Assembly (NCBI GenBank): GCA_024234215.1 | Contig: JACKOQ010000001.1 | Coordinates: forward strand, 479,674-543,673 | Length of the DNA: 64,000 nucleotides | Reading direction: 5' to 3' | Origin: Pseudomonadales bacterium | GTDB lineage: Bacteria > Pseudomonadota > Gammaproteobacteria > Pseudomonadales > UBA5862 | Shown: piece after piece, positions 1,568 to 14,154 of the stretch | Position numbering within the stretch: the stretch's first letter is position 1 | How the letters are laid out: every line of letters starts with the position of its first letter | Translations under genes and position numbers: made by a program | Notes under the pieces: generated by a model | What the model was told of the DNA's origin: nothing | The model's input: only the letters and a program-made list of their open reading frames with translations | The model's database searches: none

Positions 1568-3490
1568 ATGAAGCAGCGCAACACACTTTCGAGTTCAGGC
1601 TGGCAATGGTGGCTGCTGCTGATGCTGGGCGCTGCGCTGGCGTTGACGTTGTGGCTCTACTGGCCTGGTCTGACCGGCCCCTTTCTGCTCGATGATGAGT
1701 ACAACATTGCCCCGCTGCTGCTGGGCAGCTACAGCCCGTCGGCGATCTGGTATGCGCTGACCCACAATGAGAGCGGCCTGTTCGGGCGGATGCTCTCCAC
1801 CGCCAGCCTGCTCTTCACCGGCTGGCTGCATGGCCCCGGCTCCTGGGGTTTCAAATATCACAACCTGCTGATTCATCTGCTGACCGGGCTGCTGCTGATC
1901 GGCTGCTGTGGCCGGTTGCTTGGCTGGCGGCTGGCGCAGCGCGAGGCATGGCCTCTTGCCGTGCTGGCCGGCATCTTCTGGCTGCTGCATCCGTTGCAGG
2001 TGAGCACGGTGCTCTATCCGGTGCAGCGCATGGCGCAACTGGGTGTGCTCTTCACGGTGGCGGGGCTCTATGTGGCGCTGCTGGGGCTGGAACAGGCCCG
2101 CGATGGCCGGCGTGGCAGTGCGATCGGGTTGCTGTTCTTTGGCTATCCGCTGCTGCTGGCGATGGCCGTGGCCAGCAAGGAGAGCGGGGTGCTGCTGCTG
2201 CCCTTGACGTTGCTGGCACTCGGCTTCATCTGGCCGACATTGCGACCACGGCAGGGAGTGATCGGACTGCAACGGAACTTCGCGCTGCTGCTGGTGCTGC
2301 TGCCGCTGCTGCTGGGCCTGCTCTACTTTGCCCTGCGCTGGCCGCGCCTGCTCGACTACAGCGGCCGGCTGTTCACACTGCCTGAGCGCATCTACACCCA
2401 ACTGCATGTGCTCTGGTTCTATCTCAAGCTGATACTGCTGCCGCGACTGGGCGAGATGGGGCTCTACCACGATGACTTTGCCATCGTCAGCCAGCCGTCG
2501 CTGCTCACCTGGCTGGCCGGCGCCGGGCTGGCTGCTCTGCTGGCCGTGGCCGGGGCGGTGCGCAAGCGCTGGCCGGTGGTGTCGCTGGGCATCGGCTGGT
2601 TCTTTGTCGGCCATCTGCTGGAGTCGACCCTGCTGCCGCTGGAGATGGTGTTCGAGCACCGCAACTATCTGGCGGCCTTCGGTCCGCTGCTGCTGGTGGC
2701 CTATGGCATCCTGACCTTCTCGAAACAGATGCGCCCGTTCAAATGGGGGGTGGTGGTGACGCTGCTGTGCAGCTTTGCCCTGATGACCTCGGCCCGCGCC
2801 AAGGTGTGGAGCGACGATGGGTTGCTGCAGGAGATGTCGGTGCAGGAGCATCCCGACTCGGCGAGGGCGCGCTCCTACTATGCCAACTATCTGTTCGAGC
2901 GCGGTGAGCTGGCCAAGGGGCGGGAGCAACTGGAATACATCCGCACCCGGCTGCTGCCCGATGCCGGGGTCACTTTGCATCTGATGGGCAGCCACTGCAA
3001 CGAGGCACAGATGCCGGAGCCGCTGCTGGTCGAGGCGGCGCAGCGGCTGATCGATTACCCGGTCAACCCCTATGCGCTGAGCGGCCTCAACATGCTGGCG
3101 CAGCGGCTGGTACATGGCAAATGCAACGCGATCGAGGCCGACCGGCTGTGGCAGATGATTGCCGGGTCGCTGGCCAGCGAGCAGTCGCGATCGAGCCGCA
3201 GCTACCTGCATCGGTTGCAGGCACAGGTGGCGGTGGCGCGGGGCGATCTGGCGGCGGCCTATGAGCAGCTCGACCTGGCCTATCAGGCCGGCGGCGGCAC
3301 GGCCGTGCTGATCGAGAAGGCCGACTTGGCCCTGGGTGCCAGCGACACGGTCACGGCGGAAGTGGCCCTCAAGACCGCCATGACCACCCAGGGGCGGCTG
3401 GCCCCCGACCGCTACAAGATCACCCGCCTGCAACAGATTCTCGAACATCAGCAACGGCAGCAGGCAGAGCAGGCGGCATCGCAGGGGTGA
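1568..3490 (+). CDS. GT-C fold glycosyltransferase of the PMT/TMTC-like type with C-terminal TPR-like domain (640 aa)
   Basis: About 400 aa of multi-pass membrane domain. An acidic first-loop motif FLLDDEYNI follows TM1, and an EHRNYL motif follows the last TM. These are typical of bacterial TMTC/PMT_2-like proteins. The C-terminal ~230 aa are a soluble helical repeat (ARSYYANYLFERGELAKGREQLEYI, VARGDLAAAYEQLDLAYQ). The start was chosen at MKQRN (1568), just past the pilA terminator. Confidence 0.7.
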   Translation: MKQRNTLSSSGWQWWLLLMLGAALALTLWLYWPGLTGPFLLDDEYNIAPLLLGSYSPSAIWYALTHNESGLFGRMLSTASLLFTGWLHGPGSWGFKYHNLLIHLLTGLLLIGCCGRLLGWRLAQREAWPLAVLAGIFWLLHPLQVSTVLYPVQRMAQLGVLFTVAGLYVALLGLEQARDGRRGSAIGLLFFGYPLLLAMAVASKESGVLLLPLTLLALGFIWPTLRPRQGVIGLQRNFALLLVLLPLLLGLLYFALRWPRLLDYSGRLFTLPERIYTQLHVLWFYLKLILLPRLGEMGLYHDDFAIVSQPSLLTWLAGAGLAALLAVAGAVRKRWPVVSLGIGWFFVGHLLESTLLPLEMVFEHRNYLAAFGPLLLVAYGILTFSKQMRPFKWGVVVTLLCSFALMTSARAKVWSDDGLLQEMSVQEHPDSARARSYYANYLFERGELAKGREQLEYIRTRLLPDAGVTLHLMGSHCNEAQMPEPLLVEAAQRLIDYPVNPYALSGLNMLAQRLVHGKCNAIEADRLWQMIAGSLASEQSRSSRSYLHRLQAQVAVARGDLAAAYEQLDLAYQAGGGTAVLIEKADLALGASDTVTAEVALKTAMTTQGRLAPDRYKITRLQQILEHQQRQQAEQAASQG

Positions 3491-3571
3491 TATTCTCCCG
3501 CTTCATCTGGTGGCGTGGCAGCGCGGCCATGTCGATGAGAGCGATTCGCGGAACGACGACAAGGACTTTTC

Positions 3572-12353: not shown

Positions 12354-13474
12354 AACCGCGCATCCCGTACACCAAGCCGTCGATCACTGAGCTGGAGGTC
12401 CGCTACGCCACCGACGCGGCGGCGAACGGCTGGGGTGAGCACTGCTACGACTACATCCTGCGATTCGAGGAAGCGTTCAAGACTCACCTCGGCGTCGGGT
12501 ACGCCATTGCAACGTCCAGTTGCACCGGCGCGCTCCATATGGGCATGGCCGCACTCGACATCGGGCCGGGTGACGAAGTCATCATGGCCGACACCAACTG
12601 GATCGCCAGCGCCGCGCCCATCGTGCACTTGGGCGCAAAGCCGGTGTTCGTGGACATCCTGCCCGACTCCTGGTGTCTGGACCCGGCGCTGGTCGAACAG
12701 GCCATCACGCCTCGTACCAAGGCCATCCTCGCGGTTCACCTGTACGGCAATCTCTGCGCGATGGACGAACTGCTCACGCTTGGCGAGCGGCATGGCATCC
12801 CGGTCATCGAGGATGCGGCGGAGGCCATCGGCTCGGTCTACCACGGCCGGCGTGCCGGTTCGATGGGCCGATTCGGCGCGTTTTCCTTTCACGGCACCAA
12901 GACGCTGACCACCGGCGAAGGCGGCATGTTCGTCACCAACGATGCCGACCTTTACGAGCGGGTGCTGACGCTCAGCAACCACGGCCGCGCGCGCGGACAA
13001 ACCAAACAGTTCTGGCCCGACGTGGTCGGCTTCAAATACAAGATGTCCAACATCCAGGCCGCCATCGGCTGTGCCCAACTGGAACGCATCAACGAACTGG
13101 TCAACCGGAAGCGGGAGATACTCGCGTACTACAAGGCGCGGCTGGAACGACTCCCAGGCGTCAAGATGAATCCGGAGCCGCCGGGCACCATCAATGGTGC
13201 CTGGATGCCGACGGTCGTGTTCGATCATTCTCTCGGCATCGCGCGCGAGATGCTTCAAGCGGTGTTCGCTGAGGAGAACATCGATGCAAGGGTGTTCTTT
13301 TATCCGCTATCTGGATTGCCGCCGTTCGAAAAGAACAACATCAATCCGCTGGCCACCAGTATTCCAGAGCGCGCGGTCAATCTTCCCAGTTATCATGACA
13401 TGACGATTGTGGAACAAGACATGGTGATTTCGCCGTTGCTGAACATTACCAAAAGCATTGTGAAGTGCCAATGA
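12350..13474 (+). CDS. DegT/DnrJ/EryC1/StrS-family PLP-dependent sugar aminotransferase
   Basis: IPYTKPSITELE...TSSCTGALHM...VIEDAAEAIGS...FSFHGTKTLTTGEGGMF, with the catalytic Lys retained. The ATG at 12350 overlaps the upstream TGA. The track ORF 11492..13474 is an out-of-frame N-terminal extension through the previous gene. Confidence 0.9.
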   Translation: MKPRIPYTKPSITELEVRYATDAAANGWGEHCYDYILRFEEAFKTHLGVGYAIATSSCTGALHMGMAALDIGPGDEVIMADTNWIASAAPIVHLGAKPVFVDILPDSWCLDPALVEQAITPRTKAILAVHLYGNLCAMDELLTLGERHGIPVIEDAAEAIGSVYHGRRAGSMGRFGAFSFHGTKTLTTGEGGMFVTNDADLYERVLTLSNHGRARGQTKQFWPDVVGFKYKMSNIQAAIGCAQLERINELVNRKREILAYYKARLERLPGVKMNPEPPGTINGAWMPTVVFDHSLGIAREMLQAVFAEENIDARVFFYPLSGLPPFEKNNINPLATSIPERAVNLPSYHDMTIVEQDMVISPLLNITKSIVKCQ

Positions 13475-14154
13475 ACACGAGACCCGTGCGTTTGGGAATC
13501 ATTGGCTCTAGCGGTGGCAGCGCGCTTGCTGCGGCTGCTGAATGTCTTGTCGAGGCGGGCAAACATGTCGATTGGGTTGTTGTGACAGATCGCCAGTGTG
13601 GCTTGGAGGACTGGGCGAGAGGGCGCGGCCTCTCGCCCAGTCGCATTGATTACAAAGATGCTGAGACATTTTCAAAGAGTGCATTCGAAACGTTTCGCGC
13701 AGCCGACTGCACTAACATTTTGTTGTTCTACACGCGTCGGGTTGCCTCGCCGCTGATCGACAGACTCAGAGTCTGGAATATTCATCCTTCATTATTGCCC
13801 GCTTTCCCCGGGCTTCATGCGGTTCGCGACGCAGCAGCGGCAGGAGTACGACTTTTCGGTGCAACACTTCACCATGTCGATTCGGGGCTTGATTCTGGAA
13901 AAATCGTTGCTCAGGTTGGCGCGCCTTTTCCCGCATCATTGAAGCTGGACGATGTGGAGCATGTGAGCTACCTGCAGAAAGTATGGCTGACGCTTATCTG
14001 GTTTGAGCAGCTGCATCATTCTCACTGTCATGTCGATTCAAGAAATTCATATTTGCCAGGCGTGGCAATATCGAATCCCTCTCTTCTGGATAATGGACTG
14101 AAGCTTGCGTACCTGAATTTTCTGGCGCGATCCGAAAGACTACTCAGTCAATGA
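13471..14154 (+). CDS. Formyltransferase (PurN/GART fold), probable sugar N-formyltransferase
   Basis: RLGIIGSSGGSAL..., catalytic region VWNIHPSLLPAFPGLHA and GATLHHVDSGLDSGKIVAQ. ATGA overlap with the aminotransferase stop. The sugar substrate is inferred from context. Confidence 0.7.
   Translation: MNTRPVRLGIIGSSGGSALAAAAECLVEAGKHVDWVVVTDRQCGLEDWARGRGLSPSRIDYKDAETFSKSAFETFRAADCTNILLFYTRRVASPLIDRLRVWNIHPSLLPAFPGLHAVRDAAAAGVRLFGATLHHVDSGLDSGKIVAQVGAPFPASLKLDDVEHVSYLQKVWLTLIWFEQLHHSHCHVDSRNSYLPGVAISNPSLLDNGLKLAYLNFLARSERLLSQ

Follow-up and report, generated by a model that had tools for sequence, protein, structure and literature searches.

Type IV pilin O-glycosylation as the most likely role of a two-module pilA-tRNA-Thr island of an uncultured Pseudomonadales bacterium

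Which sugar does a pilin-linked glycosyltransferase transfer when the genes behind it include a cytidine diphosphate (CDP)-sugar pathway? The question is raised by an island of ~18 kb, found between the pilin gene pilA and a tRNA-Thr gene of an uncultured Pseudomonadales bacterium. The island was analyzed within a window of 64,000 nt, by which we mean the whole stretch of DNA, and all positions refer to this stretch. An earlier interpretation, called here the sequence-only reading, proposed a route similar to the Arn pathway, in which the CDP sugar is loaded onto a lipid, flipped and placed as a single sugar on the pilin. Our results point to a different arrangement. The pilA-to-tRNA-Thr region is most likely a type IV pilin O-glycosylation island with two modules. 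The conserved module (~1066-6600) consists of pilA and the genes for a glycosyltransferase of the C fold (GT-C), a family 2 glycosyltransferase (GT2a), a family 4 glycosyltransferase (GT4a) and a methyltransferase (MTa). The region ~6625-18638 is a variable, serotype-like cassette. The CDP-sugar genes belong to this swappable cassette and most likely do not feed an Arn-like lipid-sugar step.

The module structure was revealed by comparison with a sister island type, represented by two Logan assemblies (L001 and L002). Positions 1-6624 of the window were 90% identical to L001 at the nucleotide level, the blastn match ended at 6624, and no match was found for 6625-18638. Similarity resumed at 18639, and the stretch 18639-18707, at the tRNA-Thr border, was 100% identical to the end of L001. 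At the protein level, identity to L001 was 92% for the GT-C, 97.6% for GT2a, 90% for GT4a, 90% for MTa, and only 38% for the Wzx-type flippase. Seven of the 289 GT2a residues differed, with 7 non-synonymous against 47 synonymous-only codon changes, and therefore strong purifying selection has kept the same enzyme in the two types of island. The variable part of L001 encodes a different Wzx, a methyltransferase, a GT4 and two GT2s, and it holds no genes for nucleotide-sugar synthesis, including CDP-sugar synthesis. Because a near-identical GT2a occurs in L001 without CDP genes, a CDP sugar as the GT2a donor, a central claim of the sequence-only reading, is not supported. The flippase co-varies with the cassette, which fits a lipid carrying cassette-specific sugars and not a lipid bearing the unchanged GT2a product alone. 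Three metagenome contigs carrying the exact GT2a (L175, L176 and L177) stop within a few bases of the MTa stop/wzx start (~6400-6624), suggesting that the communities sampled contain several variants of the cassette side by side.

Within the conserved module, pilA diverges more than any other gene. Its product shared 75% amino acid identity with that of L001 (8539-8967 in L001), and 47 codons had non-synonymous and 20 synonymous-only changes. The pilin diversifies beside a conserved glycosylation core.

The CDP cassette is independent of GT2a and the GT-C. This was seen in a comparison of 80 metagenome loci carrying it (L088-L167), all with the block for RfbF, RfbG, RmlC and the C-methyltransferase in the same order, and with the methyltransferase 70-79% identical. 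DegT was encoded in 29 of these loci and CmcI in 35. None of the 80 had pilA, the GT-C or GT2a within 10 kb of the cassette. Its neighbors there encoded transporters of the Wzx or Wzt kind, soluble GT2s and a UDP-glucose dehydrogenase. These GT2s resembled the N-terminal part of GT2b, a cassette enzyme of the island (30-40% identity over 100-120 aa), and not GT2a; beyond this N-terminal GT-A similarity, no homologs of GT2b or GT4b, the cassette's GT4, were found beside the cassette in these loci. Judged by its neighbors, the cassette elsewhere appears to be part of O-antigen-like, ordinary polysaccharide clusters, in which Leloir enzymes would use the sugar in the cytoplasm.

The gene following pilA (1568..3490, plus strand, ATG at 1568) encodes a TfpW-like protein of 640 aa, with a predicted GT-C fold, a DD motif and C-terminal tetratricopeptide repeats (TPR). 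No Pfam or NCBIfam model matched it, and even at E ≤ 10 only marginal TPR matches appeared. The full-length AlphaFold2 model had a predicted local distance difference test score (pLDDT) of 90.2. In this model, residues 11-414 form long helices that we take to be the membrane domain, and helical repeats come after them. The full-length fold search was dominated by TPR proteins, and a separate model of residues 1-415 was used for the membrane domain. Each of its top 18 Foldseek matches was a GT-C-type or GT-C-fold entry (STT3, PglB, AglB, ArnT and PIGU), with probabilities of 0.98-1.0, query-normalized template modeling scores (TM-scores) of 0.34-0.51 and modest E-values, between 4e-3 and 0.14. 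The GT-C identity given in the sequence-only reading was borne out by these matches. When the family profile was compared with PDB sequences, only TPR proteins matched, with solved ones covering profile positions 415-633. The C-terminal 225 residues are TPR repeats, and this domain is presumably periplasmic. In an alignment of 45 family members, D42-D43, located just past the first helix, was invariant, as were Y285-x6-P292 and FEHRNY (362-367). The loop with D42-D43 was placed on the periplasmic side, because the N-terminus is positively charged. The family is very large, with 14,113 representatives (50% identity clusters) at E ≤ 1e-30, and its membrane domain has no Pfam or NCBIfam model.

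A described enzyme of similar anatomy is TfpW, the pilin arabinosyltransferase of Pseudomonas aeruginosa group IV strains (preprint 10.1101/2020.04.19.049825). TfpW (646 aa) is predicted to have 11 transmembrane segments and an ArnT-like fold. Its TPR domain is periplasmic, the DDx motif of its periplasmic loop 1 is essential, and its gene is found directly after pilA (preprint 10.1101/2020.04.19.049825). The island GT-C is alike in gene position, in size, in its N-terminal multi-helix membrane domain, in its large C-terminal TPR domain and in its ArnT-like GT-C fold. The DD motif of the first periplasmic loop, essential in TfpW, is invariant in the island GT-C family. Its presumed chemistry is also TfpW-like, with a lipid-monophosphate sugar as donor and pilin Ser/Thr as acceptor. 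From the TfpW motif YX6PFX7P, Y285-x6-P292 is kept, but the next residues are R-L-G-E-M and not F-x7-P. The D-arabinofuranose genes found with TfpW in strains Pa5196 and PA7 are missing from the island, which has no phosphoribosyl pyrophosphate (PRPP)-polyprenyl transferase, no DprE1/E2 and no GtrA-like protein. In their place are a GtrB/ArnC-type GT2, Leloir glycosyltransferases, Wzx and the CDP-sugar pathway. tfpX is not present in the island either. P. aeruginosa TfpW (AAM52060.1) was not among the listed GT-C homologs or loci, and a tblastn search against plasmids gave no match. The island GT-C is most likely of the TfpW type, a likeness of described anatomy and not of alignment with TfpW.

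The connection to the pilin was followed through 83 loci with GT-C relatives (29-48% identity), 80 of them from GTDB species genomes. pilA was located just upstream of the GT-C relative in 65 loci. A GT2a ortholog (48-70% identity) was present in 47 loci, usually as the next gene, and GT4a-like genes in 15. The smallest arrangement, in about nine loci (Berkiella, Legionellales, Coxiellaceae), has as its whole island pilA, GT-C, GT2 and a LPG_synthase_TM (MprF-flippase-like) protein, and then pilBCD. Compact islands of other taxa have GT4a-like genes accompanying GT2a (L006, L008 and L031). Because pilA and GT2a orthologs recur at these frequencies, a lipid-sugar synthase, a flippase and a GT-C acting on the pilin, a known kind of system, are well supported by gene context. 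This part of the Arn-like route stands, and the CDP sugar as its donor does not. The module of pilA-linked GT-C and GtrB-like GT2 is spread over the Gammaproteobacteria, including Legionellales, Coxiellaceae, Xanthomonadales-type genera, SAR86 and sulfur oxidizers, and no prior characterization of it was found in the literature. In the island, the presumed glycosylation target is the product of pilA (1066..1494, plus strand), a major type IVa pilin of 142 aa (PF00114, 63 bits; PF07963, 39 bits) with a Ser/Thr-rich central part.

Two or three tandem GT-C paralogs follow pilA in many of the loci (L018, L034, L048, L049, L057-L059, L063, L065, L068-L070, L076, L082 and L083). Several of these also have two or three pilin genes. 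The tandem copies suggest either a division of labor, e.g. attachment versus extension, or one GT-C per pilin.

GT2a (3572..4441, plus strand, 289 aa; PF00535, 114 bits) is a polyprenyl-phosphate glycosyltransferase of the ArnC/GtrB/DPMS/AglJ type. The best solved relative was ArnC (9hwj, 83 bits), followed by GtrB and DPMS, in agreement with the ArnC-like GT2 proposed earlier. It carries the DxDxQ motif typical of polyprenyl-phosphate GT2s (PMC10821137), with D86, D88 and Q90 at least 97% conserved in an alignment of 42 GT2a-cluster proteins. At the C-terminus there are two hydrophobic segments, read as transmembrane helices. Sorting the GT2a orthologs by their neighboring sugar genes gave no pattern. 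We know of no polyprenyl-phosphate GT2 with a CDP-sugar donor. In streptococcal protein O-glycosylation, a GT-C reportedly acts together with GtrB.

The resemblance of GT2a to ArnC is at the family level, and no island protein is an Arn ortholog. All Arn NCBIfam models scored far below their cut-offs: 78 bits against 529 for ArnC (NF007986, GT2a), 226 against 631 for ArnB (NF008658, the DegT protein) and 21.5 against 777 for ArnA (NF005998), the island protein being a single PurN-like domain of 227 aa. The top NCBIfam match of GT2a was the AglJ model, with 118 bits against a cut-off of 325. Polysaccharide deacetylase, EamA/SMR and PMT/PMT_2 domains, looked for as marks of ArnD, ArnE/F and ArnT, were absent from all island open reading frames (ORFs); the lack of an ArnD-like deformylase had been noted before. 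The three-component Gtr, Arn and Gac systems (PMC11127046) offer a wider frame. Gtr (GtrA/GtrB/GtrC), Arn (ArnC, ArnE/F, ArnT) and the streptococcal GacI/GacK/GacL share with the island a DxDxQ GT2 of the kind that charges polyprenyl phosphate and an extracytoplasmic GT-C; their third component is a flippase, for which the island has a candidate. Unlike them, the island has a presumed protein acceptor, no deformylase and extra cytoplasmic glycosyltransferases in the locus. The flippase candidate is also different, being of the Wzx type in the island and an MprF-like LPG_synthase_TM protein in relatives. Streptococcal protein O-glycosylation with GtrB is the subject of a further report (PMC12041528).

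What, then, would the two modules build together? In the model that we prefer, GT2a would load a common nucleotide sugar onto undecaprenyl phosphate (Und-P). This lipid-monophosphate primer would then be lengthened in the cytoplasm by GT4a and the cassette glycosyltransferases, and the methyltransferases would trim the glycan. The rare sugar would be added straight from its CDP form, by GT2b as the first candidate or by GT4b. The cassette's own Wzx would then flip the lipid-linked oligosaccharide, and in the periplasm the GT-C would attach it to pilin Ser/Thr residues. The model fits because the island has no phosphoglycosyltransferase, polymerase or ligase gene, and because GT4a is part of the conserved module. 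Pfam and NCBIfam scans found no phosphoglycosyltransferase domain (Bac_transf, Glycos_transf_4) in any island ORF, and no Wzy, Wzz or WaaL/PglL-type genes. The three Leloir glycosyltransferases encoded in the island and the absence of an initiating phosphoglycosyltransferase also speak against the transfer of a single sugar, as proposed in the sequence-only reading. We give the preferred model an even chance of being right.

The closest logic is that of the lactococcal polysaccharide pellicle (PSP). There, biochemical work supports a GtrB-like product that grows on C55-P before a Wzx-type protein flips it and a GT-C carries out the transfer (PMC10821137). As in our model, the PSP system (WpsA/B, WpsC-F, WpsG, WpsJ; PMC10821137) has a conserved synthase, flippase and GT-C, and strain-variable cytoplasmic glycosyltransferases. 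The gene set of the island is PSP-like: GT4a, GT4b, GT2b, Wzx and a GT-C accompany a GT2 synthase, and the locus lacks a phosphoglycosyltransferase. PSP differs in its Gram-positive host, its rhamnan acceptor and its polymerase, none being seen in the island, for which the mechanism is only inferred. In addition, WpsA requires the small activator WpsB, whereas GT2a appears to have its own transmembrane helices. In the AglJ N-glycosylation system of Haloferax volcanii, a GT2 makes a polyprenyl-monophosphate hexose, soluble glycosyltransferases and a methyltransferase extend it, and after flipping a GT-C-fold enzyme transfers the glycan to protein. This system resembles our model in the GT2-primed monophosphate lipid, extension, flipping and GT-C-fold transfer to protein. 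It differs in being archaeal, in its dolichol carrier, in the N-linkage and in the STT3-type AglB, and GT2a is no AglJ equivalog. In the island, a core for pilin glycosylation of the TfpW type appears to be joined to an assembly route that is three-component or PSP-like.

Several points weigh against the preferred model. The host belongs to an uncultured lineage known from metagenome-assembled genomes, and the pathway is deduced from its genes. The kinship of the GT-C to P. aeruginosa TfpW comes from described features only. A housekeeping phosphoglycosyltransferase elsewhere could initiate a glycan linked to undecaprenyl diphosphate (Und-PP), and in the sister organism CDP-sugar genes outside the island could supply the sugar. 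L082 has the same CDP cassette directly after a GT2a ortholog (63-64% identity). In L009 and L016, GT2a is followed by WbpB/D/E-like sugar-tailoring genes, with no other glycosyltransferase, and from this arrangement GT2a orthologs can plausibly accept locally made unusual sugars. L082 was considered as support for a link from the CDP sugar to GT2a, and it was rejected. Its Wzx ORF, from ~20350, runs off the locus end, and it was dropped because more glycosyltransferases may follow beyond this cut-off gene. The island of L018 carries a CDP-3,6-dideoxyhexose set. L082, L009, L016 and L018 together indicate that rare-sugar modules were recruited repeatedly, which fits serotype-like variation and does not point to the enzyme using the sugar.

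If a housekeeping enzyme did start the glycan, two routes would run side by side. GT2a, a flippase and the GT-C would add a common sugar or homopolymer to the pilin, as with TfpW, and the GT4s, GT2b, Wzx and the CDP genes would build an Und-PP oligosaccharide. An O-oligosaccharyltransferase encoded outside the window would pass the latter to the pilin, or it would go to another acceptor, e.g. lipopolysaccharide. Such a split is consistent with the classical Wzx- or ABC-type polysaccharide clusters in which the cassette is found elsewhere, and with the minimal loci, where GT-C and GT2a suffice as a module. P. aeruginosa TfpO also uses O-antigen units from housekeeping genes (preprint 10.1101/2020.04.19.049825). 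However, genes of the Wzy, Wzz, WaaL/PglL and phosphoglycosyltransferase types are all missing from the island. The cassette has the conserved pilin module on one side and tRNA-Thr on the other, within a single co-directional and largely overlapping gene string. GT4a is a member of the conserved module, with GT4a-like genes beside GT2a in the compact islands mentioned above, and the island has no separate small flippase for an Und-P-monosaccharide. We consider two parallel routes rather unlikely, but the most probable of the alternatives.

The sequence-only reading itself, with GT2a using the CDP sugar, Wzx flipping the Und-P-sugar and the GT-C putting this one sugar on the pilin, has an enzyme available for each step and draws some support from L082, L009 and L016. 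On the other side are the GT2a of the sister island, under purifying selection without CDP genes, and the 80 cassette loci, none with GT2a, the GT-C or pilA. Wzx differs strongly between the island types despite the same GT2a, GT2a orthologs are not grouped by neighboring sugar genes, and L082 runs into its cut-off gene. No role would be left for GT4a, GT4b, GT2b and three methyltransferases, and the required kind of GT2 donor would be without known precedent. We consider this explanation improbable. At the genomic level, the loci point to a GT2a that would use a common sugar and ignore the CDP product, and to CDP-sugar genes that would serve only a Wzx-dependent oligosaccharide built by the GT4 and GT2 enzymes, both of which the sequence-only reading had named as incompatible with it.

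In a last alternative, some other envelope glycan would be the substrate of the GT-C and GT2a, and only a shared tRNA-Thr integration hot spot would have brought them next to pilA. This is suggested by the pilA-tRNA-Thr interval being a hot spot for accessory genes in Pseudomonas and by an acceptor deduced from gene context, but it is very improbable, given a GT-C directly after pilA in 65 of the 83 loci, across many gammaproteobacterial orders and including loci with pilBCD next and no tRNA, and an anatomy matching that of TfpW, a proven pilin glycosyltransferase.

In its fullest form, the preferred model describes a Gram-negative protein O-glycosylation in which an oligosaccharide is built on undecaprenyl monophosphate with GtrB-like priming, flipped by the cassette Wzx and transferred en bloc to the pilin by a TfpW-like GT-C, with a distal part, carrying the CDP-derived sugar, that is swapped between strains in the manner of an O-antigen serotype cassette. 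We put this forward tentatively, with rather more doubt than belief. If true, it would be a third way to bacterial O-glycoproteins, besides the Und-PP route of PglL/TfpO and stepwise periplasmic addition. A glycan built on undecaprenyl monophosphate would extend the lactococcal PSP logic to Gram-negative protein glycosylation and provide a new type of oligosaccharyltransferase for glycoengineering. From a swappable cassette that brings its own flippase and a rare branched amino sugar, the pilus surface is predicted to vary in a serotype-like way. Glycosylation of pilins affects both how pili work and how susceptible cells are to phages. According to a preprint (10.1101/150227), TfpO- and TfpW-type pilin modifications both protect P. 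aeruginosa from pilus-specific phages.

The cassette genes are on the plus strand, with one exception. The first encodes the Wzx-type flippase candidate (6529..7815, 428 aa), a MOP family protein scoring 34.5 bits with PF01943 against a cut-off of 28.2, and the sole flippase candidate of the island. It is followed by RfbF, a glucose-1-phosphate cytidylyltransferase (7812..8579; TIGR02623, 455 bits, cut-off 300), and RfbG, a CDP-glucose 4,6-dehydratase (8579..9652; TIGR02622, 516 bits, cut-off 278). An RmlC-like NDP-4-keto-6-deoxyhexose 3,5-epimerase (10585..11133) matched PF00908 with 201 bits and TIGR01221 with 157 bits, against a cut-off of 156. The next protein (11130..12353; PF08421, PF08484) is a sugar C-3 methyltransferase of the KijD1/TcaB9/MtmC type, whose best solved relative is the 3-C-methyltransferase 5t64 (279 bits). 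The DegT-family C-4 aminotransferase (12350..13474) is perosamine-synthase-like. It matched PF01041 over its full length (405 bits), has a SFHGTK motif with the Schiff-base Lys, and its best solved relative is GDP-perosamine synthase (3bn1, 266 bits), ahead of ArnB. The ATG of the PurN-fold formyltransferase (13471..14154, 227 aa; PF00551, 64 bits) overlaps the DegT stop codon as ATGA (13471-13474), and its N-x-H...D triad is readable (WNIHPSLLP...VDSGLDSG). In comparisons with solved structures, PurN (GAR transformylase) scored 65 bits and sugar N-formyltransferases at most 31 bits. These results agree with the sequence-only reading, which had assigned 4-keto formation to RfbF and RfbG, recognized the flippase candidate, noted the catalytic Lys and seen the ATGA overlap; all genes that it named are on the plus strand, and their coordinates equal those it gave or differ by a few codons.

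Downstream follow a WbqC-family protein (14151..14873; PF08889, 224 bits) and a methyltransferase of the CmcI/rhamnosyl-O-methyltransferase family (14851..15627; PF04989, 333 bits). No solved relative of WbqC was found in the PDB search, and a literature search was uninformative. The PurN-like enzyme has no N_formyltrans_C domain, unlike the formyltransferases at the same cassette position elsewhere, and its gene is always followed by that of WbqC (13471-14873 in the island; also in L133 and L160). One could speculate, by analogy with the conversion of glycinamide ribonucleotide (GAR) to its formylated form (FGAR), that WbqC would add an aminoacyl group, perhaps glycyl, to the 4-amino sugar, and that the PurN-like enzyme would formylate it. 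GT2b (15690..16748, 352 aa; PF00535, 65 bits) is encoded on the minus strand, and no C-terminal hydrophobic segment was read in it. We regard it as a candidate transferase of the CDP sugar. GT4b (16828..17847; PF13692 and PF00534, ~75 bits each), a cytoplasmic GT-B glycosyltransferase with gene calls of 310-339 aa, and MTb (17895..18590, 231 aa; PF13489, 66 bits), an S-adenosylmethionine (SAM)-dependent methyltransferase, complete the cassette. In the conserved module, GT4a (4434..5660, plus strand; PF00534, 144 bits) is likewise a cytoplasmic GT-B glycosyltransferase, and MTa (5644..6372, plus strand; PF13489, 71 bits) a SAM-dependent methyltransferase.

From these enzymes, the expected product of the CDP pathway is CDP-4-formamido-4,6-dideoxy-3-C-methyl-hexose, possibly O-methylated. 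The calculated residue mass of this sugar is 187.08 Da, or 201.10 Da when one O-methyl group is present. Its closest known counterparts are CDP-linked branched 6-deoxyhexoses, among them CDP-vinelose (Azotobacter vinelandii) and N-acyl-kansosamine (Mycobacterium kansasii). They share with the predicted sugar the CDP activation, the 6-deoxy and 3-C-methyl groups, a likely O-methyl group and probably the L-series, after 3,5-epimerization. The kansosamine type shares in addition the 4-amino-4,6-dideoxy structure and N-acylation. The formylation in the island, by a PurN-like enzyme paired with WbqC, is unlike that by characterized sugar N-formyltransferases. A literature search on vinelose, kansosamine and 3-C-methyl sugars found no pathway paper.

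Two forms of the cassette were seen among the 80 metagenome loci. In the first, the C-methyltransferase is followed by a short-chain dehydrogenase/reductase (276-291 aa), a probable 4-ketoreductase, which would lead to a vinelose-like 6-deoxy-3-C-methylhexose. In the second, DegT leads to a 4-amino sugar. The gene between DegT and CmcI varies, encoding a PglD-like acetyltransferase, a canonical sugar N-formyltransferase or, in the island, the PurN-like enzyme with WbqC. The conservation of the C-methyltransferase at 70-79% is unusual, given the very different environments.

Between rfbG and the rmlC-like gene there is a toxin-antitoxin pair (9826..10477, plus strand), with a VapB-like antitoxin (9826-10050) and a VapC toxin of the PIN type (10031-10477). 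The matches were PF01850 (37 bits), TIGR00028 (46 bits) and weak ones to VapB and DUF2281. The pair is kept in all examined CDP-type island copies covering that stretch, and it may be a cassette stabilizer or a leftover of the element that delivered the cassette. Three JGI contigs (L184, L185 and L186) are clean from pilA to wzx. Farther on, in the parts equivalent to 9-10 kb and 11-13.5 kb of the window, clustered indels and mismatches fragment the end of rfbG, vapB and the genes for the C-methyltransferase and DegT; in L185 they also affect pilB. Gene decay and local consensus errors were indistinguishable here, and the three contigs were left out as evidence. 

The coordinates of the island genes were matched by independent gene calls on identical metagenome contigs. 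Genes beyond those listed in the sequence-only reading are those for the RmlC-like epimerase, the C-3 methyltransferase, WbqC, the CmcI-type methyltransferase, the VapBC pair, two SAM methyltransferases, two GT4s and the soluble GT2b. At the left side, the 5' part of pilB, encoding the type IV pilus extension ATPase, is divergent from pilA and runs off the window start (1..674, minus strand). Its translation reads as a PilB N-terminus, and this end is colinear with pilB-pilC-pilD of L001, L172 and other loci. A strong intrinsic terminator, with a 13-bp stem followed by a T run, is found 3' of pilA (1518..1557, plus strand; hairpin at 1518-1547). From there, the plus-strand gene string extends to 15627. 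In much of the stretch 3572-15627, genes overlap by their stop and start codons, which indicates co-translated operons. Beyond 15627 are one minus-strand gene, two plus-strand genes and then tRNA-Thr(CGU), the right border of the island (18679..18754, plus strand, by ARAGORN). The G+C content drops from ~0.65 to 0.47-0.58 between 13 and 19 kb. Just past the tRNA (18767-22489) are the genes for a Pat-type protein of 906 aa, with an acyl-CoA synthetase-like and a GNAT domain, and a member of the histone deacetylase family. The two look like a pair for protein acetylation and deacetylation, with no relation to the island.

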